NCBI GenBank assembly: GCA_910587005.1
Contig: CAJULB010000003.1
Coordinates: forward strand, 103,725-167,724
Direction of reading: 5' to 3'
DNA from: an uncultured Christensenellaceae bacterium
GTDB taxonomy: Bacteria > Bacillota > Clostridia > Christensenellales > Borkfalkiaceae
Length of the DNA: 64,000 bases
In this document: positions 14,997 through 29,751 of the stretch, piece after piece
Layout: the number at the start of each line of letters is the position of its first letter
Numbering within the stretch: position 1 is the stretch's first letter
Made by a program: the position numbers and the translations under genes
Notes under the pieces: generated by a model
Database searches by the model: none
What the model saw: the letters and a program-made list of their open reading frames with translations, nothing else
What the model was told of the DNA's origin: nothing

Positions 14997-15054
14997 AATT
15001 TTTTAAAAGCGCATTTAAAAATAGAGTATAAACAGTAAAAATTTCATACTTTTA

Positions 15055-15360: not shown

Positions 15361-16494
15361 ATGATAGACCAGAAGTTCGATGAAGTATTTACATACGAAG
15401 CGCTGTATCAGGCGCATATGCGGGGAAGGCTTGCCAAGCGCGATAAAAAGCCACTTGTGCGGTTCGAGAATGCAATGCTCGGCAATCTGTACAACGTGTA
15501 CATAAAACTGCAAAACGGCACCTTCAAGCTTCGCGGTTACAATCATTTTACCGTGTTCGAGCCTAAGCGGCGCGAAATTCAGACTTTGCACTATTCCGAC
15601 AGGGTCGTCCAGCACGTTCTGTGCGACGACGTGCTTGCGCCGTACTTCACAAAGCGCACCGTTATTGATAACGCGGTCTGTCAGAAGGGCAAGGGCAGTC
15701 ACTTCGCCCTCCGCAGGTTCGAGAATATGCTTCACGGCTACATACGCACGCACGGCGCCGACGGCTATATCTTAAAATGCGACATTTTAAAATATTTTCC
15801 GACCATTCCGCACGAAAGGCTGAAAAAAATTTTTTGTGCGGAAATCCGCGACGAGCGCATAAAACAGCTTCTGAATATGATAATCGACAGCTACCATACA
15901 GATATTGTCTATCTGGAACGCTACGGCGTTAAACCGCTCGCCGACGACTCCGGCAAAACCGGCAGGGGCATACCGATAGGCAACCAGACGAGCCAGGTTT
16001 TCGGACTGTTTTATCTGAACGAGGTTGACCGCTTCGTCAAGGAAAAACTGCGCGTAAAAATTTATTCGCGGTATATGGACGACTTTGTGCTTGTTCACGA
16101 AAGTAAAGAATTTTTGCAGAGCGCTTTAAAACAGCTGACCGGGCTTGTGCACAATCTCGGGCTGGAATTTAATTCCAAAACGCAGATTTTCCCGCTTAAA
16201 AACGGGGTAACATACCTCGGTTTCCGCTATCACGTCACGCCGAGCGGAAAAGTTGTAAAAACCGTAAAAAAGAAAACGAAAAGGCGTTTGCGCTGGCGGG
16301 CAAAGCTCTTAAAAAAAGCCGCGATAGAGGGCTTAATCACTCCCGAGCGCGTTCAGCAGTCGCTTGCGGCTTTCCACGGACATCTGAAACATTCAAAGGG
16401 ATACAGACTTGAAAAAGAGATTTTTGCAAAGCTCAGCGCCTACGCGGTGACTGAAAACGTTAAAAACGGCGGGCTTATCAAAAAACGACGCTGA
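15361..16494 (+). CDS. DGR-type reverse transcriptase
   Basis: RT domains with 'GIPIGNQTSQVFGLFYL' (the DGR-typical [IV]GxxxSQ motif) and the catalytic 'YMDDFVL'. 377 aa, with no maturase or endonuclease domain. Confidence 0.9.
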   Translation: MIDQKFDEVFTYEALYQAHMRGRLAKRDKKPLVRFENAMLGNLYNVYIKLQNGTFKLRGYNHFTVFEPKRREIQTLHYSDRVVQHVLCDDVLAPYFTKRTVIDNAVCQKGKGSHFALRRFENMLHGYIRTHGADGYILKCDILKYFPTIPHERLKKIFCAEIRDERIKQLLNMIIDSYHTDIVYLERYGVKPLADDSGKTGRGIPIGNQTSQVFGLFYLNEVDRFVKEKLRVKIYSRYMDDFVLVHESKEFLQSALKQLTGLVHNLGLEFNSKTQIFPLKNGVTYLGFRYHVTPSGKVVKTVKKKTKRRLRWRAKLLKKAAIEGLITPERVQQSLAAFHGHLKHSKGYRLEKEIFAKLSAYAVTENVKNGGLIKKRR

Positions 16495-16608
16495 CGTTAA
16501 TTTACGTGCCGTTATGGCGCGATTAATAAAAAAGCGATTAAAAAAAGCGTTTAATAAAAAAAAGGGGCATAGGGAAAGGAAAAAATAAATGTACAACAAG
16601 GAGAAACC

Positions 16609-17103
16609 ATGCAGGAAGAAGAACAGCTTTCACTGCAAATGCTGGAAAAAGAAATCCAGCAAGAGCTTAACATGCCCGAAGCGGTCGGACTGACCGACCC
16701 GTCCGCGGCAACGCGCAAAGCGTACCGCATAAACGATTTCGATAACCCGCGCGATAAAGAAATGGCGGTGTTCACCCACGCGAAAAAACTTAGCGAATAC
16801 ATTTTTGTAATCACTGAAAAATCCCCGAAAAAATACCGATGGAGCATAATAAGCCGATTGCAGAACGCCTCGGTAGAGCTTGTTGAAAACCTCTACCGCG
16901 CAAATTTCGAGCGTGACGAAGCCGTCCGCGTAAGCTTTCAGAAAGCGGCGGCGGTGTGCATAAAGCTGATTGATTTTTATGCAGAAACCGCGCGCAAAAA
17001 GCAAGCGATAACCGTCAGACAGACGGGCGTGCTTGCAAAACACATAGCCGAAACCGAAAAACTTTTAAACGGCTGGGTGCGCAGCACCAAACGCAAAATG
17101 TAA
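16609..17103 (+). CDS. avd: Avd-like accessory variability determinant (four-helix-bundle protein) with an acidic N-terminal extension of about 50 aa
   Basis: Helical core 'MAVFTHAKKLSEYIFVITEKSPKKYRWSI...' and basic tail 'LLNGWVRSTKRKM' resemble the Bordetella phage Avd / TIGR02436-type proteins. AAGGAG RBS 6 nt upstream of the ATG. Confidence 0.8.
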   Translation: MQEEEQLSLQMLEKEIQQELNMPEAVGLTDPSAATRKAYRINDFDNPRDKEMAVFTHAKKLSEYIFVITEKSPKKYRWSIISRLQNASVELVENLYRANFERDEAVRVSFQKAAAVCIKLIDFYAETARKKQAITVRQTGVLAKHIAETEKLLNGWVRSTKRKM

Positions 17104-17221
17104 ATTTCATCAAACAAAGCTCGGCGCGGCTCAACTGTAAATAAAGCAACTGCAAAACAAGCAAAACAGCAAATTTCACAGTAAAAAAACCGTACCGTAA
17201 CTTTCAGGGCGGAAGCTTAAT

Positions 17222-17343
17222 ATCTTCCTGGCTGCGCTCCGGCAACAATAACAATGCTAACAATGCCAATGCACTGTCAGCCTCAGGTAACAATACCTGG
17301 ACCACTGTTTCGTCCGTCGCTGCTGTCCGCCCCGCGCTTCACT
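17222..17343 (+). repeat. DGR template repeat TR1 (cognate of the VR in this window)
   Basis: 122 bp matching 20496..20617. There are 10 mismatches, all at TR adenines. In the VR frame it reads SWLRSG-NNNNANNANALSASGNNTWT-TVSSVAAVRPALH, rich in AAC/AAT codons. It is not part of any ORF. Confidence 0.92.
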
Positions 17344-17479
17344 CGCTTGCCAAAAAACGCTTGTCAAACACAACTTAATCAAACAAAGCTCGGCGCGGTC
17401 TGACTGTAAATAAAGCAAAACTGCAAATTTCACAGTGAAAAAAACCGCACCGTAACTTTCAGGGCGGAAGTCTGCTTAT

Positions 17480-17601
17480 ACTTCCTGGCTGCGCTCCGGC
17501 AACAATAACAATGCGAACAATGCCAATGCTCTGTCAGCCTCGGGCAATAACAACGGTTCTACTGTTTCGTCCGTCGCTGCTGTCCGCCCCGCGCTTCAAC
17601 T
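17480..17601 (+). repeat. DGR template repeat TR2 (no cognate VR in this window)
   Basis: Same 5' (CTTCCTGGCTGCGCTCCGGC) and 3' (ACTGTTTCGTCCGTCGCTGCTGTCCGCCCCGCGCTTCA) arms as TR1 and the VR. The 20-codon core reads NNNNANNANALSASGNNNGS. It differs from the VR at non-A positions (e.g. GCG vs GCT, GGTTCT vs TGGACC). Confidence 0.8.
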
Positions 17602-17776
17602 CGCTTGCCAAAAAACGATTGTGAAAAGCAATTGTCTGAAAACAGATTGCCCAAACATTAAACGACAAAGCTCGGCAAGGCTTCGGTAAAACTTTTGCTA
17701 ACACAGTTATGACTTACAAGAAATAACTACCCCAACTACCGAAGCCGCGCCGTAACTTTCAGGGCGGAAGCTTAAT

Positions 17777-17898
17777 ATCTTCCTGGCTGCGCTCCGGCAA
17801 CACAAACAACGCGAGCAATGCAAACTTTCTGACAGCCTCGGGCAACAATAACAATACGACTGTTTCGTCCGTCGCTGCTGTCCGCCCCGCGCTTCACT
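17777..17898 (+). repeat. DGR template repeat TR3 (no cognate VR in this window)
   Basis: 122 bp with the same arms. The 20-codon core reads NTNNASNANFLTASGNNNNT. It differs from the VR at several non-A positions. Confidence 0.8.
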
Positions 17899-18176
17899 CG
17901 CTTGCATACAAAAGACAAGGCAAGTTTTCCGGTATTCTGCACGTCTAAGGACTGCCGAACAGAAAAGATTTGAGAATGAAGGGGGCTTCCGTCCTGCCTG
18001 CGCTTAAAAAGCAACGCTTTAAAAGCAAAGGCGAAACCTGCTCAACCTTGACCCAACGGCTTCGGCTGAAACAAACCGTCGCATTTGGTTCATTAGCATG
18101 CTTGCATGCGGTTGAGCATTTTTTTATGCAATTTTTTTGCCGAGATGTTCGGCTGTACTGTTTTTATAGGTGAACG

Positions 18177-18207
18177 CCCCCCGACCGCGCGTTGCGCGGT
18201 CGGGGGG
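18177..18207. other. Perfect 14-bp GC-rich hairpin with a 3-nt loop
   Basis: CCCCCCGACCGCGC-GTT-GCGCGGTCGGGGGG, with all 14 pairs Watson-Crick. No T-run follows. It lies between the TR array and the G-rich repeat. Confidence 0.7.
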
Positions 18208-18230
18208 CTATCTTAATGGGGGGCAGGGGG

Positions 18231-18357
18231 TAAGCCACCCCCCTTAGTCCCCCCGCCGAGGGCAGGGGGTAGGTATTGGACAATCTCCGCCGAGGGCAGG
18301 GGGTAATAATGCGGTAAAAATCCCCCGCCTGGGCGGGGGAATAAAAGGGGGTGGGAT
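18231..18357. repeat. G/C-rich composite repeat, left copy (flanks the DUF559 gene)
   Basis: Modules: TAAGCCACCCCCCTTAGTCCCC, then CCGCCGAGGGCAGGGGGTA (x2), then the TCCCCCGCCTGGGCGGGGG palindrome, then AATAAAAGGGGGTGGGAT. A direct repeat of 18769..18896. Confidence 0.85.
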
Positions 18358-18384
18358 AAATTCCAACAAAATTATTCAGTGTAT

Positions 18385-18729
18385 TTAAATGTTTAAATGG
18401 CTGTAAATATCGGCGCAGACAGATTTAAATTCTGAATTTACTTGTCGGTTAGAGTACCTCAAAACGGTATAACCCAAAGAATTAAGAAAATTATCCCTTT
18501 CAACGTCTTTTTCCGCGTGTCCGTCCCAATAATGTTGAGAACCGTCAAGTTCGATAATCAGTTTTTGTTTCGGACAGCAAAAGTCCACAATGTAATTTTC
18601 TATAACTTTCTGCCGCCAAAACCTTACAGGCAGTTTATTCAGGAATTGAAACCAAAGTTTTTTTTCTTCTTTGGTTTGATTACTACGCAGTACGCGTGAG
18701 TTTTTAAGCATATTTGAGTTTAGCTTCAT
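18385..18729 (-). CDS. DUF559 endonuclease-domain protein (Vsr-like fold)
   Basis: 'LRSNQTKEEKKLWFQFLN...YIVDFCCPKQKLIIELDGSQH...D..RDNFLNSLGYTVLRYSN' is the typical DUF559 pattern. Start trimmed to the ATG at 18729, because the track ORF extends into the G-rich repeat. Confidence 0.75.
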   Translation of the reverse strand: MKLNSNMLKNSRVLRSNQTKEEKKLWFQFLNKLPVRFWRQKVIENYIVDFCCPKQKLIIELDGSQHYWDGHAEKDVERDNFLNSLGYTVLRYSNRQVNSEFKSVCADIYSHLNI

Positions 18730-18768
18730 AGCAAAAGTATAACATTTATTTGTTTTAAATGCAAGTGT

Positions 18769-18896
18769 TAAGCCACCCCCCTTAGTCCCCCCGCCGAGGG
18801 CAGGGGGTAATAATGCGGTAAAAATCCCCCGCCTGGGCGGGAACAACACTACAACAAAATCCCCCGCCTGGGCGGGGGAATAAAAGGGGGTGGGAT
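18769..18896. repeat. G/C-rich composite repeat, right copy
   Basis: Same modules as 18231..18357, but here the CCCCCGCCTGGGCGGG palindrome module is duplicated instead of the CCGCCGAGGGCAGGGGGTA module. Confidence 0.85.
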
Positions 18897-18953
18897 TAGT
18901 GCAATTTTTCTGTTAAAAAGTAACAAAAAGAAATCGCGTAAAATTAAAAAAAA

Positions 18954-18980
18954 GTTCGCCTATTAATATGATAGGCGAAC
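18954..18980. repeat. Left 27-bp inverted repeat (self-palindromic arms), followed by a T7 run
   Basis: GTTCGCCTAT-TAATATG-ATAGGCGAAC. It is the exact reverse complement of 19132..19158, preceded by an A-run and followed by TTTTTTT. Confidence 0.9.
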
Positions 18981-19090
18981 TTTTTTTGTCGAACTTTGTC
19001 GAACAAAATTCACAAAACTACAAAAAAGGGTTAAAAATTGACAAATTATCATAAAATAGTATGGAAATATGAGAAATTTTTTAAAATTTG

Positions 19091-19119
19091 TTGACATAAT
19101 TTACAAATAGTGATAGTAT
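19091..19119 (+). promoter_or_regulatory. Candidate sigma-A promoter of the giant DGR-target gene, located between the two inverted repeats
   Basis: TTGACA (19091-19096), 17-nt spacer, TAGTAT (19114-19119), pointing toward the ATG at 19213. Confidence 0.5.
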
Positions 19120-19131
19120 ACGGGTACAAAA

Positions 19132-19158
19132 GTTCGCCTATCATATTAATAGGCGAAC
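19132..19158. repeat. Right 27-bp inverted repeat
   Basis: GTTCGCCTAT-CATATTA-ATAGGCGAAC. The arms match the left copy and the 7-nt centre is reverse-complemented. Confidence 0.9.
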
Positions 19159-19212
19159 ATTTGGTGCATAAAAAATTTAAAAATTGTTATAAAAAAAGGT
19201 AGGGTTTTTGGT

Positions 19213-22200
19213 ATGACAATACACAAGAAGGGGCAGGCGAAAAATAGCCGTTTTTACGCTATTTTTCACCGAAAAGCGACAAAAATCGGCACTTTATTTG
19301 CAACATTCGCGTTGAGCATTGCGTGCTTGACGGGCACGCTTTTGCCGTCGAAAACATCAAACGCAATGCAGGGCGGTGTTACTTATTCACAAATAGGTGA
19401 AATCTGGAATGACACGCGCAACCGCTTCAACTCGGCAGAGCTTACAAAGCTGTTCAATCAGCTTGCCGGCAGTGACTACACGGCGGCGACAAAACCGAAA
19501 GACGCGCTTGAAAACATCAAAACGCGTTTAAACCTTGACAGCAGTAAAAACGACTCTTACGGCACTAAGGCAATCAACGAAACGGCGGCAAACCATTATA
19601 ACCACCAGCTCACGTCAAACCAAATCCGTTTAAAAAACGGCGGTAAAGACATAGTTGTGGAGTTCGGCGGGCTTGAATGGACGGTAACATATCTGTCCTA
19701 CACAAAAACGGGCGAACCGATTGCCACGCTTTGGCTTGCCAACCCGCTTGGCACCAGCCGTTGGTCGGACTACTGGTACACTAAGTACACTACCACCAAC
19801 ATGACAAAGCAGTCCAACCTGTACGGTCAAAGCTATATCCGTTCGGAAACGTTAAACGCAGGCTCTCGCTATACCACGGTTGCGGGCGCTTCGGCAAGCA
19901 GTGTAAAGACGGATATAACCTCGGACGCAAGCGTTCAGTGGGTGGAAAACCAAAAGAGTTACGACAACCCTTTTGCAAAATTCACTATTAATAATAAGGA
20001 AACGGCTTACGACAACTCCGGCAACAACCCGCAGAAGTTCAAAGGCAGTTTAACCGAATTCCTTGCAACCCCGCGCGAGGTAAGCTGGCAGGAGGACCAA
20101 AGCTGGTCGGTATTCGGCAACCTCGACTATTCGTTGGGTAACGACAGCTGGGACGACCCTTACGTTATCGCCAACGGCGTAAGCGGAAACGGCGCGGTCG
20201 CTTCAACGTTCAACTACTACAATGCAGGCAACGGCGACTTCCGCCGTGCGTACGGCAGAACCACCGACAGCGACGGTGACGGATACGGCGACGGTCAGGT
20301 TTACAACGGCGCAGGCAAGTACAAAATTCAGTACACTGACTGGGCGGACGACTATGTATGGCTTCCTTCCTTAACAGAAACCGGCTACCAGAATAACGCA
20401 GGCACTTCAAAGTCCACGGTAGGCGGTGTTTGGTACCCTTCACAGGCACAGCGTAAATGCTTCGGCGGTACTAACGACGGTTTCAGCAGTTCCGACTCTT
20501 CCTGGCTGCGCTCCGGCGACTCTCTCAATGCTAACAATGCCCATGCACTGTCAGCCTCAGGTTACCCTACCTGGACCACTGTTTCGTCCGTCGCTGCTGT
20601 CCGCCCCGCGCTTCACTTAAATCTCGAATCTGCCGCTTCAGCGGCAAGGGGCATTGACGTACCCGAAGAGATTGAAACCGAAACCGCAAAAACGTACAGC
20701 GGTACGGCAATTGCAAGCCTGCAATATATCGACCTGACGAAAAGCGAAATCAGCAAGGTTGAATTAACAAAAACAGATAACAAAGGCAATCCAACTACGT
20801 CAACATTGACCGCGGGCGAATACTCGGTTACGGACGGCGTGTTTTATGCTACCAACGCGGGCAAATACAAGGTTACGTTCACAATAAAAAATCAAGCAAA
20901 CAAATGGGACGGTAGTACGGTTGACCCCGACACAGGGGTACCGATACACCCGACCGACCCCGACCAGCCCGTAATATACTGGGAAATTCTGGATTTGCCG
21001 GACGGTTACACACCGCAAGGCTCGTCCGACCTGCGATTGCAGGACCAGACGATAGAGTTTGAAATAGCCAAAGCCGAAACCGTTCTGTCCGACGTAAGGA
21101 GGACCGAAACCGCTCAGCTTTATACGGGCGGAGCGTTGCCTCCGCTGACCTGCACCACGTCGGTAAACGGCGCGGTAACTTTGGACAGCGACCAGACGCT
21201 TGACCACGAGGCTACGCTGTACAACTGGACGTTCCTGCCCTCCGGCGCGGACCAGTACAACTATAAACAGAAAACGGGCACCATAACGCTGAACGTTAAA
21301 AAACCGCTTTTGAAAACGCTGACCGCAACCTTTGACGCGGACGCATACAAAAGCGCGCTTGAAGCGGGCACGGCTTTACCGATATATTCCTCAACCCCGA
21401 TTGCAAATATCAAAGCTATAATAAGCAGTTTTGTAACCATTTCGGGTAAAAAAGAGGACGGAAACGCTTACACGTTGCCTATATATTATAATATTGATTA
21501 TAACGCAACCGACAAGCTGAACGGCAAACTGCAATACGGCACAACAAGCGTTGTGGCAAGCTATCAGGACGCGGATATGCTTGCGGAAGGCGTTGAAGCC
21601 GTTAAGTGCGATATCGAGGGGATACCCGTTATCGCCGTTGAAATGACGGGCATTACGCTTAACACCACATACAAAAACGTTTACAACGCGTACGATACGT
21701 TCGATACGACCGATTTGGTGGTTACGGCAACCTTTAACGATAATTCCACAAAGGTTATATCCTCTGCCGATTATACGGTTGAGTATGTTGACAGCACGCG
21801 CAGTAAGCTTTGGGCAAGCGACGGTTACGTTACCGTTAAGTACGTTTACAACGCCGAAAACGGCAAAGAGAATACCGACAGCAAAACCGCGTCGGTTACG
21901 GTAAACAAAATTAACTTTACGGGACTTACGTTTGAAAACAGCACCGTGCCTTACGACGGTGAAAACCACGCTATAACCGTAGGCGGAACGTTCGACCCCG
22001 ACAAAATGACAGCGGTTTACGCATATGCGGGCGCAGTAGGCAGCGGCAGGGTTAACGTGGGCGATTATACCGTTTCGGTTTCGCTTACGTTCACCGATAA
22101 CGAGCTTATAACCAACTATCACCCCGTAACCCTTGCGGACGTTACCCTTAAAATTACCGCGGTTGACTACGACGACCTTACTTCGCTTACGTTCAACAAC

Positions 22201-25200
22201 GTTTCGGCGGAGTTTATAGGGCAGTCGCTTGCTTCGGCTATAACCGCTTCGGGTATGCCTGCGGGCGTTACCGCAACATACACGTTTGCCGACAGCGAGG
22301 GCAACCCCGTTTCCTCGGCGGACGTTATAAACGCGGGTTCTTATACCGTTACCGCTAAGTTTAAGGTTGATAGCAACCACAACGCCATCCCCGACAAAAC
22401 GGCGGTATTGACGGTTACTCCCAAAACCATATTAATAAACAATTTAAGCGGAATTAATTCCGAATACACCTACGCGGGCAGTGCGTGGAGCAACCCCGCG
22501 CCTATATTGAAGGTTACGCTCGGCACGGACGCAACCGCAACAAATCTTGTAGCCGATACCGACTACACCGTAACTTATACGGTTACTGCTGGTACCGCGG
22601 GCAAGGCGGGCGCAACCGTTCTTGTTACCGTTACGGGTAAGGGCAACTACAAGGGTACGGTTACAAAATCGTTCTCAATCAAAAAAGCTACGCTTAATCT
22701 TACCTGGAACGCGGGTTCGCCCCAGTATGACGGAAACCCCCACGGCGCAACGCTTGAAGTAACGGGCGGAGTGCAGGCGGGCGACGAAAGCATTACAACC
22801 TCGGCTTTGGGCGCGCTTATCAGCGTTACCTATACTAAGGACGGAGCTACGGTAAGCGGAGTGCCCTCGGCAATGGGTATTTATACGCCTGCGTTCACCA
22901 ACTTCCCGACGAGCGAGCCGTATTCCAACTACGACTACGTTATAACCAACGTAGGATATAAGTATGAAATAACCGCGGCGGTTATTTCGGGAATTACTTT
23001 CGACGATTTATCCGTTGAATTCAACGGCAAAAACCAGACCATAGAAATCACCGCGTCAAGCGCGCTCCCCGCGGACGTTACCCCCGTATATTACTACAAG
23101 GGCACGTCAAACCTGTTCACGGGCGCAACCAACGCGGGAACGTATGAAGTTACCGTTAAGTTTGTAAGTGCAAGCGGAAACTACGCCGCGCCCGCGGATA
23201 TGGACGCAGTGCTTACAATCACGGCAAAGACGATTGCGGATATAAACGTAAGCAATATCAACAGCGAGTACGTTTATAAGGGCGAAGCGTGGAAGCCTTT
23301 GCCCGCGGTTGCCGTTGCTTTGGGTACGGATACCACGGCTACAACCCTTGCAAAGGACAGAGATTACACCGTTGCATACAGCACGGAGGATTATTCGGCG
23401 GGCACGACGGTTACTGTCACCGTTGAGGGTATAGGCAATTACAGCGGTACCGTTACCGTTGCGTTTGAAATTAAAAAGGCGACTTTGGGCGTTGATTTTA
23501 TCGGCACAGATAAAACTTACGTCTACAACGGCGTTGCGCAGGGCGTTACGGCGGTGTTCACGGGCGTTGCCGAAAGCGATAAGGACACTGTTGTGCCTAC
23601 AATCGTTTACGAAAGTGCGGACGGAACAACTTACCCCGCAAACGCAAATCTGCCCAAAAACGCAGGCAGTTACGTTATTAAAGTAACGCTTGACGCAACC
23701 TTCGCAAACTACGAAAGCTTTGCTGAAATTTCAGAAACGTTCGATATCGAAAAGGCAACCCCTGTAGTTCACGTTGCTTTCGATACCTATAATCCCGATA
23801 CCGACCGCATTTTTGCAGGCGGCGACCTGCCCGCGCTTAAAGTGGTTTCGGCAGTGTTCGGAAGCGTAACCGTAACCGGTACGGTTGACTGGCAGTTAGT
23901 TGACGGCGTTAAACCGCTTTTAACCACAGCGCTTACCGATTACGTTTGGGAATTTGTGCCTGCGGGCGACGACGCGGTTAACTTCAATAACTATACGGGC
24001 AAAATTCAGCTTTACGGCGAAGTGCCCGGTATTGCGGGTATTACCGTAGAGTGGAGGGCGGACGTACCTGCTCCCACGATTTACACGTCTACCTCGCTTG
24101 ACGATTTAAGAAAATATATTATCGTGCGCGCTACGCTGGACAACGGCAAACCCGCGGACGGTGAGATTACCGATTACACCCTTAAAGGCAACTGGGGCGC
24201 TGGCGTTAAGCCTGTTGACAACGTTACCGCAGACTATAACTTAACCGTAATTTCGGCAAACGGCAAATCCGCCGAGCTGGAAAACGTTAAGTATTACAAG
24301 GTTGAGCTTATCGGGCTTGACGTTGTGGCTTCGGACGCAGACGCAGGTATTAAATTAACCTACGCCGCGCTTACGAAGTTCGATAAGTCGAGCATTTCGG
24401 TCATAGCTTTGTATAACGACGGTAGCCGTGTTACTGACATTACCGATTACGAAATCAAATATCCCGTGGAGGGAGAGGACGTTCTTTGGGCGGGCAACAC
24501 TTACGTTACCGTATCCTATAAGGACGGCACCGTTGCAACCGCTAAGGAGTTTATAATTAACGGTTTAACGGTTAATTCGGTTAATTACGACCTTACGGAC
24601 GTTAAGTTTGCGGATACCTCCGTACCCTATGACGGTAACGAACATTCCGTTGTTGTTACGGGCTTGCCAGCAAGCGGTATGAAGCTTGAATACACTTACA
24701 ACGGTACGGCTCTGCCCGACGGCGTTAACGGTATGGTTGACGCGGGCAAGTACACGGTAAGCGTTAAGATTACCTTCACGGACAATAAATATATCGTTAA
24801 CTACAACGCGATTGTTTTAAGCGATATTACCCTCACGGTCGAAAAAATCGACTACGACGGAGTTGGCGATATTACGTTTGACGACGTTGCCGTTGATTAT
24901 AACGGCAGTGCGCGCGCAGACGAAATTGTTGCGGGCAATGTTCCCGCGGAAGTGGTTGCGCTGGGCGTAACTTACAAGTACGAGAAAGTCGGCGCAGACG
25001 GAACTTTGACCGAGTGCTCCGCGGAAGACGTAATTAACGCGGGCGAGTACAAGGTTACCGTTTCGTTCACGGTAGATAAAAACCATAAGGACATTCCCGC
25101 GGTTACCAAAACGCTTACTATTAACAAAATCGACCCCACTATTAACCCTACGGTTATCAGGGCGATTACGGGACAGCTTCTTATCGGCGCACAGCTTATT

Positions 25201-28200
25201 TCCGCCGACGGAGATACCCCCGGTAAGTACGAATGGATTAACCCCGACCATACTTTGGCAAACACCAACAACGAACAGTACAGATTTACCCCGACCGATA
25301 CGGTAAACTATAACGTTGTAACGAAAAATATCGTGTTTGCAGCGGAAACCAAGGTTTTACAGACTATCCGCGTAATATTTACGCAGGGCGATACAAAGCT
25401 TTACACCTCGTACACGATTGAAGACGTTAAAAAGCTTATCGACGAAGGTAAAATAAGCATACAGGTTATAGGCGTATATACAGACGGTTATAACGCTACC
25501 GAGGAAAATATTTCGGCAGGCTACGAGCTGTCCTTGCCCGACGGTGCAACGCATCTTACCGAGGGCGAGTGCCATATCAGCGTCAAGTACCAGCATGTTA
25601 CTAATTCCGACCGCTATCTTACGGTTACAAAAACCGAACTTGAAAGCATTACCCCCGTATTCGACCAGAAGGGCGTGCCTGTATACAGCACTCCCGACGA
25701 TATAGAAACGCTTAAAGCGCTTATCGCGGCGGGCACAGTTTCCCTCACGGTTACGGGTACCAACAACGACGGTAAAACCGCTACCGAGCCTTTCACCTAC
25801 ACAATTTCGGGCGACTGGTCAGGCATGACGGCGGACGGTAAGTTTGCTGTTACCGTTACGGTTGACGGAACAAGCATTTCAAATACCTTCGAAGTTGAAA
25901 TTACGCTTGCGGCAATAGCTTCAATTAAAGCGGAATTTGACCAGAAGGACGCGAAAATCTTCACTTCAACCGATTTGGACGGATTTAAACAGCTGCTTGC
26001 AAACGGCGAAGTTTCGCTTACCGTAAAGGCTTATTACAACAACGGCAAAAACGTTGAAATCAACCTTGCAACGGATACTTCCGACGGTTACACGCTTGCG
26101 CTTTCGACTGCTAATTTCGAAGTAGGCGGACTTGTAAACGTAAGCTATACGGTAAACGGCACGTCGTTCCCCGCATCGTTCGCAGTTGACGTTACGGAAG
26201 TGGAGGTAGTAAGCGTAAGCGCAACCGTTAAAGCCGGCTTCACCGTTTACACCGATACTACACTTGCAAACCTTAAAGACAATATACTTGCAACTGCTTA
26301 CCGCAACGACGGAACAAGCTTCGACGTACCCGCGGCAGACTTCTCGATTTCCCTGCCTGACGGAGAAACCAAGCTTACGGCAGGCGCGCAGAAAGTCGTA
26401 CTCGTCACATATAACGGTTCCGACAAATCTGCCGACTGCGCGGACTTCGGTCTTATTACCGGCGTAACCAAGCACGCAACCCAGATATACTATAACGGCA
26501 AGACCGAATTCACTTATACGGGCAGCGAGCAGGTTATCAACAGCGGAGCAACTACAACCAACACTCAGAGCCCGACGATTAAATATACAATCGGCGGAGC
26601 GGACGCTAAATTTACGGACGTACCCGCAAGCGGCGAGCTTGTTCTTAAAATCGAAGCGGCTGAAACCGACGATTACTTTGCGGCTGAAATTACTCTTACG
26701 ATAACCGTAAGCAAAGCCGACATAGATATGTCTGCGGTTGACTTCGACGACGTTGAATACAAGTATGACGGAACCGATAAGAGCATAACCGTTGATACAA
26801 GCAAGCTTCCTGCCGGCGTTACCGTAAGCGGTTATGAATATCTCGACACTTCGGACGGTACAACGCTTTCAACTTCAAGCGTATCTGCGGCGGGCGTGTA
26901 CAAAGTAACGGTTAAATTCACCGTTACCGATACCGACAACTACAATCTTGTAGCCAACAAAACCGCAACGCTTACAATCAAAAAAGCGGACTACGATATG
27001 ACCGGCGTTACCTTTAACGGCGATACGGTTACATATGACGGCAGCACGCATACCCTTTCGGTTGACGCAAGCAGTCTTCCCTCGGGCGTAACCGTTAAGG
27101 AATACGTTTACACCAACAAGGCGACGGGTGTTAAAGTAACCGATACCGGCGTTGCAAACGCAGGCGAATATACCGTTTCGGTAAGCTTCAACGTAGCTGA
27201 CGCAGTAAACAATAACGCAGTAGCCGATATGACCGCAACGCTTACTATAAACAAGGCGCAGACGGTTATAGATACTTCCGCAATTGTAACCGATTACACC
27301 TACGACGGACTTTCGCACACTGTAAGCGGCGCAACGCTTACCGCAGGCGAAACGGGCGCGGTTATACTGTATTCTTCAAACAGCACGTTTACCGACGTTC
27401 CCTCGGGCGGCAAGCTCACCGTTACCGTGTACGTTAACGACAGCACCAACTATATCGGCGCTTCGGCAACGGTTGAAATAACGGTTAGAAAAGCTTCTCT
27501 TACGATTACAGCGAAGGATAAGACGATATTCTACGGCGACGCACCCGCAAACGACGGAATTAACGAGCCTGTCGGCTTTGTTAACGGCGAAACCGTTGCA
27601 AACCTTAAAGGCAACGCAACATATTCTTACGATTATGCTAAGGGCGGCAACGTTGGCGATTACGTTATTACGGTAAGCGGATTTACTTCTGCAAACTATG
27701 ATATAACCTACGTTACAGGCACCCTTCACGTACTGCAAAAGACTGTTGCGGTTGAATGGACTTCACAGACCTATACGTTCGACGGAAACGGCCACGCTCC
27801 CACGGCTTCGTTTACGGGCATCGGCGGCGACAAAATCGCTATGACCGTAACGGTGGAAGAAAAGGGCGGTTCTGCCGTAACAGGCTTGCCCGTCAACGCT
27901 TCAACCTATGTTGCAACGGCGGCTTCGACCAACGCAAACTATAAGTTTACCGGCGAAACCAAGGAATTTACCATTAATCCCGCGGATATAAGAGTTACGG
28001 GCACGGGCGACCAGTTCTACCTCAGCGGCGGCAGTAAGGACATTACTATTGACGCGGCGGAAAACGGCAAATACGTGTACGTAATACTTCAGGGCAATGT
28101 TACGGGCGCAACGTTCGAGTACAGCCAGGCGCACAACACCTCGTCTGCATATCCCTCTCCCGAGGGGGAACACTCGTTCACAACCTCCAAACCCGTTATA

Positions 28201-29751
28201 ACGGCGGCGGGCAGATACGTTGTAAATTACAGAATAACTGCTCCCAACCATAACGTTTATCTCGGACAGTGGACGGTTGAAGTTACTGACGATACCGAAA
28301 AATCAATAACCATAACCTTCAAAAAACCCTATACCGTTGAGTTCGGCAAGGTGCCCGAAAGCAAGGATGAGCTTGCAAAGCTTGCCGAAGAGCTTTACGA
28401 CGGCGGATATATAACCGTTGACGGACTTGACAGAGAAGAGTTCCTTAAAGTTATGGAACTGCGTTTGAAAGTAGATAATTCCACCGACGTAACGACGGGA
28501 ACAGACGTAGGCAGATACACTCCTTATTTCGAAATCGGCGATGTGTTCGAACCCGTTTACGGCGGTTACGTAATCTTCTACAAGACCGAAAACACGGCGG
28601 AAAACTCCAACATCGGCAAGTTTGAAATTAAGCAGAAAGAGCTCAGCATTACATGGGACAGCATAGGCTTCGTAGCAGACGGTACGTTGCATCTTCCCAC
28701 GGCAACCATAGGCGGATTTAATGACGGTACAACCGCAACGCTTGAACTTGACAGCGCGGCGGGCAAAACGTTCAGAATCGAAGCCGACGGTAAAACAATC
28801 AATGTAACAATCGGCGTACACGGCGACTTAATCAGCGCCGGCGGACATACGCTTGTAGTCAGTGTAGACGACGATAACTATACAATCGACGTTCCTATGA
28901 CCACCGTTTCCATAACGGCGCCCATTAAGCTTGAAGTTAAATGGGAAAATACAAGCTTTGTATACGACGGCGAATCGCATCTTCCCAAAGCTTTGATAAG
29001 CGGTTTTGCTGGCGGTAAAACGTTTGAATTTGCTTTGCAGACAGCGGAAGGCGGCAGCTATTCGTTTGAAAACAACGGCACAACCATTACTTTCACAGTA
29101 ACGGTTGCGGGTTCAGGCAACGTATTTACGGACGTAGGCGTTTATAGAGTTACCGTTTCGTCAAACAGCGCTAACTATGTAATAAGCAATCCCGACACCC
29201 AGATATCGATAACGGCTCCCAGAAAACTTGTTGTAACGTGGAACCAGACGGTATTTGATGAGGACGGAACACAGCACTTCCCCAAAGCTTTGATAAGCGG
29301 ATTTAACGAAAGCGACCCCGTAGCTATCGAACTTAAAGCGGTAAGCGGCGGCGTGTTCACGGTAGAGGTAGACGGTAAAAGCGTAACCTTTACTGTAAAC
29401 GTTGCAGGTATAGGCAATATTCTTAAAGACGCGGGCAACTATAACGTTTCGCTCACGGTTAACAGCAAAGATTACGTTATCGATAACGCTGACGTTACCA
29501 TGACGGTAAGGGCGCTTGTCGGTGGCGAAGTCGAAGGCAAGCTTTCCAAGCCCTGGCTTATAGGTCTGATTATTGCGCTCGGCGTGCTGTTCATAATGAT
29601 TATAATTGCTTATATCGTTGCGGCTAAGCGCAAACCCAAGCTTGTCGGCGCTATCGACGAAGGCGGTTTCAGCGAACCGTATATGCAGTCTTTGGACTAT
29701 ATGGAAGCTGCACCGTCGGACGACGATGACGACGAAGAAGAGGATGAGTAA
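19213..29751 (+). CDS. Giant (3512 aa) cell-surface protein and DGR target
   Basis: Domain order: signal/anchor-like N-terminus, a variable lectin-like head, Ig-like (Big_3-type) and MBG/'YDG' repeats, then a C-terminal TM anchor and acidic tail. N-terminal hydrophobic segment 'IGTLFATFALSIACLTGTLL'. Head module ends 'SSWLRSG...VRPALHLNL'. Dozens of ~80-100-aa repeats carry 'V.YDG..H', 'AG.Y.VTV', 'NY......ATLTI.KA'. One classic MBG unit: 'FYGDAPA...GDYVITVSGFTSANYDITYVTGTLHV'. C-terminus 'PWLIGLIIALGVLFIMIIIAYIVAAKRKPK...DDDDDEEEDE'. No LPXTG motif seen. Confidence 0.9.
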   Translation: MTIHKKGQAKNSRFYAIFHRKATKIGTLFATFALSIACLTGTLLPSKTSNAMQGGVTYSQIGEIWNDTRNRFNSAELTKLFNQLAGSDYTAATKPKDALENIKTRLNLDSSKNDSYGTKAINETAANHYNHQLTSNQIRLKNGGKDIVVEFGGLEWTVTYLSYTKTGEPIATLWLANPLGTSRWSDYWYTKYTTTNMTKQSNLYGQSYIRSETLNAGSRYTTVAGASASSVKTDITSDASVQWVENQKSYDNPFAKFTINNKETAYDNSGNNPQKFKGSLTEFLATPREVSWQEDQSWSVFGNLDYSLGNDSWDDPYVIANGVSGNGAVASTFNYYNAGNGDFRRAYGRTTDSDGDGYGDGQVYNGAGKYKIQYTDWADDYVWLPSLTETGYQNNAGTSKSTVGGVWYPSQAQRKCFGGTNDGFSSSDSSWLRSGDSLNANNAHALSASGYPTWTTVSSVAAVRPALHLNLESAASAARGIDVPEEIETETAKTYSGTAIASLQYIDLTKSEISKVELTKTDNKGNPTTSTLTAGEYSVTDGVFYATNAGKYKVTFTIKNQANKWDGSTVDPDTGVPIHPTDPDQPVIYWEILDLPDGYTPQGSSDLRLQDQTIEFEIAKAETVLSDVRRTETAQLYTGGALPPLTCTTSVNGAVTLDSDQTLDHEATLYNWTFLPSGADQYNYKQKTGTITLNVKKPLLKTLTATFDADAYKSALEAGTALPIYSSTPIANIKAIISSFVTISGKKEDGNAYTLPIYYNIDYNATDKLNGKLQYGTTSVVASYQDADMLAEGVEAVKCDIEGIPVIAVEMTGITLNTTYKNVYNAYDTFDTTDLVVTATFNDNSTKVISSADYTVEYVDSTRSKLWASDGYVTVKYVYNAENGKENTDSKTASVTVNKINFTGLTFENSTVPYDGENHAITVGGTFDPDKMTAVYAYAGAVGSGRVNVGDYTVSVSLTFTDNELITNYHPVTLADVTLKITAVDYDDLTSLTFNNVSAEFIGQSLASAITASGMPAGVTATYTFADSEGNPVSSADVINAGSYTVTAKFKVDSNHNAIPDKTAVLTVTPKTILINNLSGINSEYTYAGSAWSNPAPILKVTLGTDATATNLVADTDYTVTYTVTAGTAGKAGATVLVTVTGKGNYKGTVTKSFSIKKATLNLTWNAGSPQYDGNPHGATLEVTGGVQAGDESITTSALGALISVTYTKDGATVSGVPSAMGIYTPAFTNFPTSEPYSNYDYVITNVGYKYEITAAVISGITFDDLSVEFNGKNQTIEITASSALPADVTPVYYYKGTSNLFTGATNAGTYEVTVKFVSASGNYAAPADMDAVLTITAKTIADINVSNINSEYVYKGEAWKPLPAVAVALGTDTTATTLAKDRDYTVAYSTEDYSAGTTVTVTVEGIGNYSGTVTVAFEIKKATLGVDFIGTDKTYVYNGVAQGVTAVFTGVAESDKDTVVPTIVYESADGTTYPANANLPKNAGSYVIKVTLDATFANYESFAEISETFDIEKATPVVHVAFDTYNPDTDRIFAGGDLPALKVVSAVFGSVTVTGTVDWQLVDGVKPLLTTALTDYVWEFVPAGDDAVNFNNYTGKIQLYGEVPGIAGITVEWRADVPAPTIYTSTSLDDLRKYIIVRATLDNGKPADGEITDYTLKGNWGAGVKPVDNVTADYNLTVISANGKSAELENVKYYKVELIGLDVVASDADAGIKLTYAALTKFDKSSISVIALYNDGSRVTDITDYEIKYPVEGEDVLWAGNTYVTVSYKDGTVATAKEFIINGLTVNSVNYDLTDVKFADTSVPYDGNEHSVVVTGLPASGMKLEYTYNGTALPDGVNGMVDAGKYTVSVKITFTDNKYIVNYNAIVLSDITLTVEKIDYDGVGDITFDDVAVDYNGSARADEIVAGNVPAEVVALGVTYKYEKVGADGTLTECSAEDVINAGEYKVTVSFTVDKNHKDIPAVTKTLTINKIDPTINPTVIRAITGQLLIGAQLISADGDTPGKYEWINPDHTLANTNNEQYRFTPTDTVNYNVVTKNIVFAAETKVLQTIRVIFTQGDTKLYTSYTIEDVKKLIDEGKISIQVIGVYTDGYNATEENISAGYELSLPDGATHLTEGECHISVKYQHVTNSDRYLTVTKTELESITPVFDQKGVPVYSTPDDIETLKALIAAGTVSLTVTGTNNDGKTATEPFTYTISGDWSGMTADGKFAVTVTVDGTSISNTFEVEITLAAIASIKAEFDQKDAKIFTSTDLDGFKQLLANGEVSLTVKAYYNNGKNVEINLATDTSDGYTLALSTANFEVGGLVNVSYTVNGTSFPASFAVDVTEVEVVSVSATVKAGFTVYTDTTLANLKDNILATAYRNDGTSFDVPAADFSISLPDGETKLTAGAQKVVLVTYNGSDKSADCADFGLITGVTKHATQIYYNGKTEFTYTGSEQVINSGATTTNTQSPTIKYTIGGADAKFTDVPASGELVLKIEAAETDDYFAAEITLTITVSKADIDMSAVDFDDVEYKYDGTDKSITVDTSKLPAGVTVSGYEYLDTSDGTTLSTSSVSAAGVYKVTVKFTVTDTDNYNLVANKTATLTIKKADYDMTGVTFNGDTVTYDGSTHTLSVDASSLPSGVTVKEYVYTNKATGVKVTDTGVANAGEYTVSVSFNVADAVNNNAVADMTATLTINKAQTVIDTSAIVTDYTYDGLSHTVSGATLTAGETGAVILYSSNSTFTDVPSGGKLTVTVYVNDSTNYIGASATVEITVRKASLTITAKDKTIFYGDAPANDGINEPVGFVNGETVANLKGNATYSYDYAKGGNVGDYVITVSGFTSANYDITYVTGTLHVLQKTVAVEWTSQTYTFDGNGHAPTASFTGIGGDKIAMTVTVEEKGGSAVTGLPVNASTYVATAASTNANYKFTGETKEFTINPADIRVTGTGDQFYLSGGSKDITIDAAENGKYVYVILQGNVTGATFEYSQAHNTSSAYPSPEGEHSFTTSKPVITAAGRYVVNYRITAPNHNVYLGQWTVEVTDDTEKSITITFKKPYTVEFGKVPESKDELAKLAEELYDGGYITVDGLDREEFLKVMELRLKVDNSTDVTTGTDVGRYTPYFEIGDVFEPVYGGYVIFYKTENTAENSNIGKFEIKQKELSITWDSIGFVADGTLHLPTATIGGFNDGTTATLELDSAAGKTFRIEADGKTINVTIGVHGDLISAGGHTLVVSVDDDNYTIDVPMTTVSITAPIKLEVKWENTSFVYDGESHLPKALISGFAGGKTFEFALQTAEGGSYSFENNGTTITFTVTVAGSGNVFTDVGVYRVTVSSNSANYVISNPDTQISITAPRKLVVTWNQTVFDEDGTQHFPKALISGFNESDPVAIELKAVSGGVFTVEVDGKSVTFTVNVAGIGNILKDAGNYNVSLTVNSKDYVIDNADVTMTVRALVGGEVEGKLSKPWLIGLIIALGVLFIMIIIAYIVAAKRKPKLVGAIDEGGFSEPYMQSLDYMEAAPSDDDDDEEEDE
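20496..20617 (+). repeat. DGR variable repeat (VR), codons ~428-469 of the giant ORF
   Basis: Matches TR1 except at positions where TR1 has A. It encodes SWLRSG-DSLNANNAHALSASGYPTWT-TVSSVAAVRPALH. Confidence 0.92.
20631..20646 (+). other. Short GC hairpin 14 nt downstream of the VR (candidate DGR target-recognition hairpin/cruciform)
   Basis: TGCCGC-TTCA-GCGGCA: a 6-bp stem with a 4-nt loop, inside the coding sequence immediately after TR/VR homology ends. Confidence 0.5.

Follow-up and report, generated by a model that had tools for sequence, protein, structure and literature searches.

A chromosomal diversity-generating retroelement that probably diversifies the tip of a giant surface fibre in a gut Christensenellales bacterium and may draw on alternative templates

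The window analysed in this study, the whole stretch of 64,000 nucleotides, carries a diversity-generating retroelement (DGR) located upstream of a gene for a 3512-aa protein. We consider it likely that this chromosomal DGR of a gut Christensenellales bacterium introduces diversity at the tip of a giant fibre on the cell surface, and that it does so with alternative templates. The features of the locus are the following.

15361..16494, + strand: DGR reverse transcriptase (RT), 377 aa (Pfam RVT_1, 1.4e-14; IGNQTSQ and YMDD motifs in the translation)
16609..17103, + strand: Avd accessory protein, 164 aa (Pfam bAvd PF22296)
17223..17343, + strand: template repeat A (TR-A), encoding ..NNNNANNANALSASGNNTWTT.., the donor of the variable region (VR) in the window
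17481..17598, + strand: template repeat B (TR-B), encoding ..NNNNANNANALSASGNNNGST.., with a 5' 20-mer and a 3' 38-mer common to the VR
17778..17898, + strand: template repeat C (TR-C), encoding ..NTNNASNANFLTASGNNNNTT.., with both ends common to the VR
18950-18984 and 19128-19162: two copies of a ~35-nt palindrome, one on either side of the promoter-like site (inverted repeat, 97% complementary)
19091..19119, + strand: promoter-like site of the target gene, TTGACA-17-TAGTAT with a TG upstream (10/12, the best promoter match within 15000-19400)
19213..29751, + strand: target gene for a 3512-aa, type-I membrane-anchored fibre (single intact ORF)
19213..19365, + strand: predicted Sec signal peptide, aa 1-51 (hydropathy scan; basic n-region, hydrophobic aa 25-46, SNA|MQ)
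19366..20652, + strand: N-terminal head, aa 52-480, divergent DUF6273 / C-lectin-like (DUF6273 profile, AF2, Foldseek)
20497..20617, + strand: VR, codons 429-469 (adenine-only mismatches to TR-A)
20631..20646, + strand: candidate target-recognition hairpin TGCCGC-TTCA-GCGGCA, 14 nt past the end of TR/VR identity
20653..29553, + strand: stalk, aa 481-3447, ~30 tandem MBG / Ig-like beta-sandwich modules (Pfam, internal repeats, AF2, Foldseek)
29554..29625, + strand: single C-terminal transmembrane (TM) helix, W3448-A3471 (hydropathy maximum 3.14)
29626..29748, + strand: cytoplasmic tail, 41 aa, ending SDDDDDEEEDE (translation)

The original prediction described the DGR target as a giant fibre-like surface protein of 3512 aa, with the VR in an N-terminal head (codons ~428-469) followed by Ig-like/MBG repeats and then by a single TM helix and an acidic tail at the C-terminus, and this description was supported by our analysis. 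The ORF at 19213-29751 is intact and in a single frame, and the VR was found at codons 429-469, at ~12% of the length of the protein, where it closes the N-terminal head; the head strings that had been quoted, VWLPSLTE, SSWLRSG and TVSSVAAVRPALHLNL, are all present in the translation. Pfam, internal repeats and AF2/Foldseek analysis identified ~2970 residues of MBG/Ig-like beta-sandwich repeats after the head, and both the hydropathy scan and the translation gave the TM helix and the acidic tail. W3448-A3471 is the only strongly hydrophobic segment besides the signal peptide in the hydropathy scan, and it is directly followed by KRKPK, which is consistent with the positive-inside rule. At the N-terminus, the structure model displays a helix at residues 13-42 and then a low-confidence linker, and the signal peptide cleavage site is a putative one. 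Anchoring by sortase was ruled out, as no LPXTG motif is present near the C-terminus. Domain profile searches across all 3512 aa detected no peptidase or other catalytic domain.

Orthologues from other species share the layout of the target. In an independent assembly (L001) the protein is 99.2% identical over all 3512 codons, an orthologue in a Borkfalkiaceae metagenome-assembled genome (MAG) is 78% identical with a frame open for at least 3021 aa, in a second MAG the open frame continues for at least 2666 aa past the VR, and two full-length relatives of 3484 aa, in which the acidic tail is also present, were found. Judged by these comparisons, the giant ORF is not a one-off assembly product. 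The original prediction would have been called into question by frameshifts splitting the ORF in independent assemblies, and three assemblies do have a gene called in two pieces: L001 has a TAG at codon 454, within the VR, and L011 and L012 each have a 1-nt deletion in the VR at a template adenine. Splitting of the ORF was thus observed, but none of the breaks falls outside the 121-nt VR, and the frame remains open and conserved over the remaining ~3000 codons. This indicates hypermutation or a problem of assembly at the VR rather than a pseudogene. Since three of ~11 alleles are disrupted within the VR, the gene may often be off.

The RT and Avd genes are both located upstream of the target gene and on the same strand. 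Motif 4 of the form [LIV]GxxxSQ is specific to DGRs among reverse transcriptases. This motif was found in the RT together with YxDD, and the locus also shows mismatches at adenines between TR and VR, an Avd gene adjoining the RT gene, and a VR that is variable against a constant TR. The Avd protein scored 44.4 bits with bAvd PF22296 (cut-off 40) and 47 bits with NCBIfam DivGenRetAVD, which is below the cut-off of 80 for that profile. The neighbouring genes encode SMC, FtsY, Leloir enzymes, glycoside hydrolases (GH2/42/3/97/31) and an ABC sugar transporter, with no phage genes among them, and this synteny is retained in a MAG from another species. This context supports a chromosomal DGR of a gut Christensenellales bacterium (Borkfalkiaceae-like). 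A search of IMG/VR with the VR 3' 35-mer GTTTCGTCCGTCGCTGCTGTCCGCCCCGCGCTTCA gave no match, and a close phage origin of the head was considered and dropped when tblastn of the head against phage genome records gave no match either. The promoter region is conserved upstream of an allele with a divergent head (L006). Rfam and tRNA scans of the window were empty.

The VR and TR-A differ at nine positions in a 118-nt core, all nine at template adenines and none elsewhere. TR-A has 12 variable codons, in which a stop codon is unreachable, and could give rise to ~2.5e12 peptides. The 12 diversifiable residues of the VR are 436-439, 441, 442, 444, 451-453, 455 and 456, and they map to a loop and a beta-hairpin in the AF2 model, with pLDDT values of 84-98 there. 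Between L001 and the window the TRs, including the copy of TR-A, are 100% identical and the flanks are 99% identical, whereas the VR differs at 13 of 118 positions; this comparison of assemblies, with a VR that varies and a TR that is constant between close relatives, suggests that the DGR is active. The candidate hairpin downstream of the VR lies within the codons for ...ESAASAARG, and in orthologues its stem is conserved while its loop varies (TTCA vs CTTG). It resembles the BPP-1-type hairpin (PMC3240598) in its position and its 4-nt loop, but it has a 6-bp stem, compared with the 7-10 bp reported, and its loop is not GRNA.

The cassette holds three template repeats rather than one, an observation that the original prediction had overlooked. 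The 20-mer and 38-mer ends shared by these repeats and the VR occur four times each in the window, with none expected from 100 shuffles. The template units encode different scaffolds (ALSASG..TWTT, ALSASG...GST and FLTASG....TT), and TR-B has 10 non-adenine mismatches to the VR of the window. The non-adenine sites that tell the A, B and C scaffolds apart include positions 31, 46, 58 and 61-76 of the 114-nt core. An array of three to four tandem TRs, again of these three types, is conserved across four genomes, with four units in one relative. The possibility that the TRs are decayed VR remnants of duplicated targets was ruled out, because they lie in non-coding repeat units and retain stop-free, AAY-rich codons across four genomes and because each TR type is the adenine-only donor of a real VR. 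When two MAGs, which like the other MAGs compared are incomplete, were scanned with the exact 3' 35-mer, each yielded the TRs plus one VR only.

Comparison of alleles, which are assembly consensus sequences and in several cases come from short contigs, indicated that the single VR carries different template types in different genomes. The VR of the window is of type A, with no non-adenine mismatch, and that of L011, in a target gene 97.9% identical in DNA, is of type C, with 10 of 10 differences at adenines. The VR of L009 (96.4% identical) is a mosaic, type B in its 5' part and type C in its 3' part: none of the four sites incompatible with C lies beyond position 33, and none of the nine sites incompatible with B lies before position 43. 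In the Borkfalkiaceae MAG and in a 'Christensenella' MAG the VR is of type B, adenines accounting for 16 of 17 differences in the one and for 12 of 12 in the other, and type C copies also fit the VRs of L012, L006 and P0294. In the second head allele group, P0290 is of type A, P0294 and P0003 are of type C and P0292 is of type B, the contigs of P0292 and of P0004 being clearly VR/TR chimeras. In seven other alleles there are 10-17 VR/TR differences, all or nearly all of them at adenines. Because the allele scaffolds correspond to A, B, C or a B/C mosaic and the differences fall almost entirely at template adenines, this comparison argues for alternative templates feeding one VR. No account of a choice among three TRs for one VR was found in the DGR literature searched.

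The head matched DUF6273 (PF19789) with an E-value of 1e-4 over aa 376-470, covering profile positions 79-171 only, and its scores of 22.7 bits for the head alone and 20.6 bits for the whole protein did not reach the Pfam cut-off of 23.5. Despite this score, the head is, on profile evidence, a divergent DUF6273 member with an insert, because 41 of 64 relatives in the head family match DUF6273 at E ≤ 1e-3, the best at 1.3e-11. The C-lectin-like, DUF-type module 'WLRS...VRPAL' that the original prediction had proposed for this region can accordingly be identified as DUF6273. The VR (aa 429-469) forms the C-terminal end of the match, and published DGR VRs likewise sit at the C-terminal end of DUF6273, the fold of which has been termed C-lectin-like (PMC10743442, PMC11792537).

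The AF2 model of the head (pLDDT 76.6, pTM 0.77) contains a disordered insert at aa 319-370. Foldseek matched the model to DUF6273 phage proteins at a probability of 1.0, and the top PDB match was 9qa6, the Thomasclavelia ramosa IgA peptidase with an N-terminal DUF6273 domain, which is a weak match (E 6.6e-3, TM 0.23); direct matches to C-lectins (CD94, NKR-P1, CD23, Lcl) all had E > 1. The weakness of the Foldseek matches of this 510-aa model is attributed to the disordered insert and the multi-part fold. A search of PDB sequences with the head-family profile gave no match. Among 60 relatives, the columns equivalent to the VR are hypervariable within a conserved SWLRSG..A..A..L...G....AVRPALHLNL scaffold. 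The head family comprises 3318 cluster representatives, the longest members being 6561 aa, and most of the best 150 relatives have the head at the N-terminus, 24 of them being 2500-6561 aa long. An RT gene next to the target is not universal in the family, because the one relative checked (P0014) has no RT within 10 kb. A second head type is 38% identical to that of the window, with the same promoter and stalk.

In the stalk, MBG_2 scored 55.1 bits and MBG_3 up to 30.2 bits (cut-off 25 for both), and Big_3 matched weakly. Many internal repeats of ~90-100 aa were found, together with a large duplication in which aa ~600-1200 resemble aa ~1510-2100, and the relatives of aa 2480-2860 are MBG_3/MBG_2 proteins. 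The AF2 model of the stalk had a pLDDT of 83.8, and its top Foldseek matches were cadherin ectodomains, the GhpA grappling hook and titin.

These results suggest the following model for the function of the locus. The Sec signal peptide would direct the protein to export, and the single C-terminal TM helix with its short acidic cytoplasmic tail would serve as the anchor. Given this anchor and a long stalk of ~30 MBG/Ig-like modules, which might extend over ~100 nm, the ~430-aa DUF6273 head would form the membrane-distal end. Sequence comparison shows that RT and Avd copy a template repeat into cDNA, that its adenines are randomised and that codons 429-469 are overwritten, and the twelve head residues on the loop and beta-hairpin can take 4-15 identities each. 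An internal VR also means that both the 3' homing sequence and the candidate hairpin have to be encoded in the reading frame. The allele comparison further suggests that any template unit could rewrite the same VR, either whole or in its 3' part only, so that a choice of framework would be combined with adenine hypermutation. The most likely function of such a head would be to bind, in an adaptable manner, glycans or proteins on the surfaces of the host, of food or of microbes.

Alternatively, each TR might serve a target of its own, with TR-A assigned to this gene, TR-B and TR-C to paralogous giant genes elsewhere, and the VR types of the alleles arising by gene conversion or recombination. 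Remote targets and several TR/VR pairs are known in DGRs (PMC5758913, PMC6642488, PMC12386605), the second, 38%-identical head with the same promoter and stalk would indicate a modular, recombining locus, and remote VRs of TR-B or TR-C might exist beyond the incomplete MAGs. However, this explanation seems unlikely to us, as the exact 35-mer scan gave a single VR in each of the two MAGs, and it is the cassette-adjacent VR itself that is A, B, C or mosaic in alleles that are 96-99% identical. Furthermore, differences that fall nearly all at adenines are the signature of fresh retrohoming and not of exchange with another VR, and the newer part of the mosaic is its 3' part, as expected if cDNA integration begins at the 3' end. 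We lean towards a natural multi-template DGR, in which three to four complete units with identical homing arms and differing framework residues would compete for one VR, partial replacement from the 3' end would give rise to mosaics, and adenine deletions may also switch the fibre off as a phase switch. Such a system would place segment choice on top of adenine hypermutation, loosely analogous to V-segment choice combined with somatic hypermutation.

An adhesive tip is also not the only role that could be assigned to the head, which might be a regulatory or substrate-selecting module on a non-adhesive fibre, such as an S-layer-like spacer or a phage decoy. In keeping with such a role, the best PDB match is an IgA peptidase whose N-terminal domain is annotated as DUF6273, no DUF6273 domain has a known ligand, and cell-surface DGR targets may also act in phage-host conflict (PMC8144416). 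We regard it as improbable for this protein, in which no catalytic domain was detected over the 3512 aa; the protein matches ligand-binding DGR targets both in its architecture, with a variable domain placed distally on a long stalk of repeats, and in the spectrum of residues at the variable sites, and the gene is located among glycan-utilisation genes. That the giant ORF is decaying or misassembled and the DGR a relic, with the VR breaks being due to pseudogenisation, appears very improbable. The gene is in two pieces in three assemblies, owing to the TAG codon of L001 and the 1-nt deletions of L011 and L012, but the restriction of these breaks to the VR, the conservation of the remaining open codons at 99%, 78% and ~80% identity in independent genomes, and the stop-free, AAY-rich codons that the TRs retain across species all stand against decay, and both deletions, being at template adenines, look like products of the DGR.

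In the textbook view, the VR is located at the C-terminus of DGR targets. The original prediction of an unusual layout was correct in that the VR lies away from the C-terminus, but the layout is less unusual than that prediction implied: it corresponds to the tentaclin-like organisation already in the literature, and most of the head family shares it. An N-terminal DUF6273 VR domain combined with Ig-like domains has already been published, and what is new is the chromosomal, membrane-anchored, giant form. A general rule is suggested, namely that the VR domain sits opposite the anchor, in which case a C-terminal anchor would go with an N-terminal VR domain and with homing signals encoded within the gene; this rule may be useful for DGR target pipelines that are limited to C-termini. 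The scale of the head family, with its 3318 representatives of up to 6561 aa, suggests that hypervariable giant fibres of gut Clostridia form a large class on which little work has been done. Variation by DGRs is known to be confined to adenine-encoded positions. If the choice among templates is real, it would remove this limit, and it would provide a natural blueprint for the engineering of multi-template DGRs, which are now being built artificially in Escherichia coli.

Among known systems, the tentaclins (PMC10743442; Int J Mol Sci 2023) likewise begin with a DUF6273 VR domain, after which come several Ig-like domains in a row. They are virion proteins of phages or prophages, 313-649 aa long and with one to four Ig domains, and bacterial tentaclin-like proteins reach 1445 aa (PMC10743442), whereas the target described here is chromosomal rather than phage- or prophage-encoded and has 3512 aa with ~30 MBG/Ig-like modules. 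At the C-terminus, tentaclins are anchored by an Ig-like domain that contains a 7-residue consensus, whereas the target ends in a TM helix and an acidic tail, and the tentaclin DGRs studied have one TR for two targets, in contrast to three TRs apparently for one target.

The classical cellular targets, which include Legionella LdtA, Treponema TvpA, and Bacteroides and other CLec/DUF1566 proteins (PMC5758913, PMC8144416), have a surface C-lectin-type VR domain, as predicted for this protein, and share with it adenine mutagenesis by RT and Avd and a variable domain opposite the anchor. Their anchor is N-terminal (lipobox, signal or TM) and their VR lies at the extreme C-terminus, so that their homing elements can be intergenic; the present target has the opposite polarity, with its 3' homing sequence and candidate hairpin inside the coding sequence. 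The 'Ig1/Ig2' classes (Wu et al. 2018; re-interpreted by Roux et al. 2021) similarly have a VR that is not C-terminal and Ig-like domains beside a non-Ig VR domain, but these targets are mostly phage tail-fibre-like, and the accessible portions of those papers describe no giant membrane-anchored fibre or multi-template cassette.

The only solved DUF6273 structure found, the T. ramosa IgA peptidase (9qa6; PMC12402451), also has this domain at the N-terminus of a multi-domain Gram-positive surface protein, but that protein carries a sortase motif as well as an M64 peptidase domain and is not diversified by a DGR (PMC12402451). Cassettes with more than one TR are likewise known, with two TRs and six VRs in Stenotrophomonas sp. 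SKA14 (PMC6642488) and TR1-3 in the crAss-like phage Lera (PMC12386605). In those two systems each TR has its own VR or VRs, whereas here both homology arms are common to three to four TRs and a single VR, and the allele comparison shows this VR written from different TRs, in one case as a mosaic.

The region 19213-29751 on the forward strand is one open frame of 3512 codons, and within it lies one of the four copies of a 171-nt repeat family in the window, the other three being located in the non-coding stretch 3' of avd. The copy in the giant ORF, the variable repeat (VR), differs from the first template repeat (TR-A) at nine positions, all nine of them template adenines. Both the 20-nt 5' end and the 38-nt 3' end common to VR and TRs are found exactly four times in the window and not at all in 100 shuffles. 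A reverse transcriptase (RT; RVT_1 match, motifs IGNQTSQ and YMDD) and an Avd protein are encoded upstream on the same strand. The locus is a bona fide diversity-generating retroelement (DGR), and its target is the giant ORF. Both had been proposed in the original prediction, which placed the VR at codons ~428-469; the VR/TR identity maps to codons 429-469.

Features of the cassette and of the target's 5' region
17187-17912, three-template array
17223-17343, TR-A, complete repeat unit, encodes ..ALSASGNNTWTT
17481-17598, TR-B, complete repeat unit, encodes ..ALSASGNNNGST
17778-17898, TR-C, complete repeat unit, encodes ..FLTASGNNNNTT
18385-18849, minus strand, DUF559 (Vsr-like endonuclease) ORF, in an insertion hotspot
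18950-18984 and 19128-19162, two copies of a ~35-nt palindrome (AAAAGTTCGCCTATTAATATGATAGGCGAACTTTT) that bracket the promoter-like site
19091-19119, the target's own strong promoter-like site
20497-20617, plus strand, VR, codons 429-469 of the giant ORF
20631-20646, candidate hairpin TGCCGC-TTCA-GCGGCA, 14 nt past the end of TR/VR identity (20617), within the codons for ...ESAASAARG

The first 51 residues resemble a Sec signal peptide by hydropathy, opening with basic residues and continuing with a hydrophobic stretch (25-46) up to the putative cleavage site SNA/MQ. The head that follows (aa 52-480) contains the module that had been likened to a C-lectin-like or DUF-type module. The protein's own Pfam match to DUF6273 (aa 376-470, profile positions 79-171) scored 22.7 bits, below the 23.5-bit cut-off, but 41 of 64 head relatives match DUF6273 (best E = 1.3e-11). 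In addition, Foldseek searches with an AlphaFold2 model of the head, built on the head relatives (pLDDT 76.6, pTM 0.77; VR region 84-98, disordered insert 319-370), returned DUF6273 phage proteins at probability 1.0. Among solved structures the best match was 9qa6, the T. ramosa IgA peptidase; its N-terminal domain carries a DUF6273 annotation (PMC12402451). Direct C-lectin matches in Foldseek were short and without significance. The 12 diversifiable residues (436-439, 441, 442, 444, 451-453, 455, 456) map in the predicted model to a loop and both strands of a beta-hairpin, on a scaffold of invariant A440, A443, ALSASG, W454 and VSSVAAVRPAL. This predicted placing matches published DUF6273 DGR targets, whose C-lectin-like domain has the VR as a beta-hairpin at its surface (PMC10743442, PMC11792537).

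The original prediction of a long Ig-like/MBG repeat region, a single TM helix and an acidic tail was supported by profile matches, hydropathy and translation. The stalk (aa 481-3447) matches MBG_2 (55 bits), MBG_3 (up to 30 bits) and, weakly, Big_3, and is rich in internal repeats of 90-100 aa. A test segment (aa 2480-2860) has MBG proteins as its relatives, and its model (pLDDT 83.8) shows a chain of beta-sandwich domains with best structural matches to cadherin ectodomains, the GhpA grappling-hook protein, titin and S-layer proteins. W3448-A3471, followed by KRKPK, is the sole strongly hydrophobic segment besides the signal peptide in the hydropathy scan; a 41-residue tail ending in SDDDDDEEEDE completes the protein, and no LPXTG motif was found near its C-terminus. 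From the signal peptide, the repeat stalk and the C-terminal TM segment with its tail, we therefore infer that the N-terminus is outside and the C-terminus inside, with the variable head at the distal end of the stalk, far from the cell as had been proposed. The stalk would comprise some 30 modules, and its length may be about 100 nm. A large duplication of ~600 residues was also observed in it (aa ~600-1200 versus ~1510-2100, window 21000-25500; 31-56% identity).

The N-terminal VR had been regarded as a departure from the usual C-terminal placement. In published surveys, the great majority of VRs are indeed C-terminal (PMC5758913, PMC8144416): Roux et al. describe this placement as near-universal (PMC8144416), and Wu et al. 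record three N-terminal VRs besides a handful of internal ones, and point out that such positions require a coding IMH (PMC5758913). However, the 'tentaclins' described in 2023 in phages have an N-terminal DUF6273/C-lectin VR domain followed by 1-4 Ig domains, with bacterial versions of up to 1445 aa (PMC10743442). A profile search with the head family returned 3318 cluster representatives, 855 of them at E <= 1e-30. Among the best 150 of these 3318, the head is N-terminal in 122, 24 proteins are 2500-6561 aa long, and the head is at the C-terminal end in only 3 of the 63 proteins of at least 1000 aa. Therefore, the N-terminal-VR layout is the norm for this head family and an organisation already known. 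What is new here is the chromosomal, TM-anchored, 3512-aa form, which shares with tentaclins the N-terminal DUF6273 VR domain and the Ig-like domains after it; the rule supported is that the VR domain lies at the end opposite the anchor. Because the VR-equivalent columns of the relatives are hypervariable, with Y, S, N, D, G and H abundant, while the scaffold is fixed, the alignments suggest that many relatives are likewise DGR targets, although no RT was found within 10 kb of the one relative checked (P0014).

The window is chromosomal. The DGR is preceded by genes for SMC, FtsY, rubrerythrin, galT/galK/galE/mutarotase and GH2, and the target is followed by those for a GDSL esterase, AraC regulators, GH42, GH3, GH97, an ABC sugar transporter and GH31. 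No phage genes were found in the window; searches with the VR 3' 35-mer in IMG/VR and with the head in phage records (tblastn) were both negative. Among named genomes, the closest are MAGs from mouse gut, labelled Candidatus Borkfalkiaceae and 'Christensenella' (Christensenellales). Carbohydrate-utilisation genes surround the DGR and target (6097-13190 and 30058-60150): the Leloir galactose genes, the glycoside hydrolases, GH31 with a PA14 domain, the sugar transporter and AraC. The neighbourhood also includes a gene at 37547-39346 for a 599-aa protein bearing Listeria-Bacteroides repeats, and it hints that the ligand of the fibre may be glycan-related.

The insertion hotspot between the TR array and the target promoter (18225-18903) holds the DUF559 ORF, flanked by GC-rich palindromic direct repeats (18223-18337 and 18761-18876); it carries an unrelated repeat-rich insert of 478 nt in L001, an independent assembly with a near-identical target, and only ~65 nt in the related locus L009 and the Borkfalkiaceae MAG. 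The ~35-nt palindromes, which could be operators, or a terminator and a 5'-UTR hairpin, are conserved upstream of the divergent-head allele L006, in L009 and in the Borkfalkiaceae MAG. The hairpin downstream of the VR is a candidate target-recognition element: its stem is conserved in orthologues while the loop differs, and it resembles the required target hairpin of BPP-1 in position and loop size, but with a shorter stem and a loop that is not GRNA (PMC3240598).

The leader and the 3' flank (CTCGCTTGC) of each TR unit are conserved, and the units lie 257-298 nt apart. TR-A, TR-B and TR-C have both homology arms in common with the VR and differ at non-adenine scaffold positions; each offers 11-14 variable codons, from which no stop codon is reachable (2e12 to 4e13 peptides). 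Similar tandem arrays are present in related loci (L002 5741-6344; L009 3630-4235; L003 1505-2383). Four genomes with RT genes of only about 81% identity conserve all three types; the order differs among them, and one MAG carries a fourth copy. In each MAG, a single VR has the exact 3' 35-mer. The fourth copy, in the 'Christensenella' MAG (L003 1505-1618), exceeds the others by 3 nt (..ASGYNPNNA..); two of its normally variable positions have codons other than Asn, and it may be either a live template or a decayed copy.

VR alleles: DNA identity to the window target, template type, and differences counted against the matching TR
Window, reference, type A, 9 at A, 0 elsewhere
L001, 99%, type A, 14 at A, 2 elsewhere
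L011, 97.9%, type C, 10 at A, 0 elsewhere
L009, 96.4%, B/C mosaic
Borkfalkiaceae MAG, ~80%, type B, 16 at A, 1 elsewhere
'Christensenella' MAG, ~77%, type B, 12 at A, 0 elsewhere
L012, ~79%, type C, 13 at A, 0 elsewhere

All three types also occur in a second head-allele group: A in P0290, C in P0294 and P0003, and B in P0292, a contig chimeric between VR and TR-B. In the L009 mosaic, the four C-incompatible sites all lie at or before position 33 and the nine B-incompatible sites all at or after position 43, a clean split of 13 sites with a probability of 1/715 under random order, which places the crossover between positions 34 and 42. Template type cuts across phylogeny, and deviations from the matching TR are specific to adenines; on the simplest reading of these alleles, every template is live and homes into the same VR.

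The target is conserved at full length in L001 (99.2% protein identity across all 3512 codons, no gaps). The Borkfalkiaceae MAG keeps the gene order GH2, cytidylate-kinase-like, RT, avd, TRs and giant ORF, with an orthologue 78% identical and open for at least 3021 aa; in a second MAG the frame is open for at least 2666 aa past the VR. Two 3484-aa full-length relatives (P0290/P0294) have stalk, TM helix, tail and promoter in common with the window protein and a head only 38% identical, VR excepted. The head thus seems, from these comparisons, to be exchanged as a module between allele groups. Across this second group (L006 1-330 versus window 18950-19212 for the promoter region), the VR is also shared, the stalk is ~80% identical and the ~430-aa head 38%. 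Some short public contigs are assembly artefacts: P0004/P0293 (L007, L008) and P0292 jump from VR to TR and flank, so that the predicted proteins are chimeric, and the 3' end of L006 runs into Illumina adapter sequence.

A split of the ORF in independent assemblies had been named as evidence against the original prediction, and the gene is indeed called in two pieces in three of them, but every break lies within the VR (L001 3245-3358; L011 2228-2340; L012 1375-1487). The L001 break is a TAG at codon 454 from a G-to-A change, not at an adenine, and L011 and L012 each have one single-base deletion at a template adenine. Since the breaks are confined to the VR and the frame outside it is open and conserved, the pattern argues for lesions in a live gene, made by the DGR or possibly by assembly, rather than for a pseudogene. 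The breaks may stem from on/off switching by the DGR, or from assembly problems in a mixed population.

In BPP-1, integration at the 3' side is fixed, and cryptic sites for 5' integration have been observed (PMC3240598); the L009 mosaic, with its newer segment at the 3' end, fits this pattern. The literature searched, with incomplete coverage, yielded only cassettes in which each TR has its own VR and engineered multi-TR systems, and no description of alternative templates for one VR. Whereas known multi-TR cassettes pair each TR with its own VR (PMC6642488, PMC12386605), the window cassette has three TRs and one VR, and this multi-template cassette, together with the adenine-site frameshifts, lifts the locus beyond an extreme cellular member of a known organisation.
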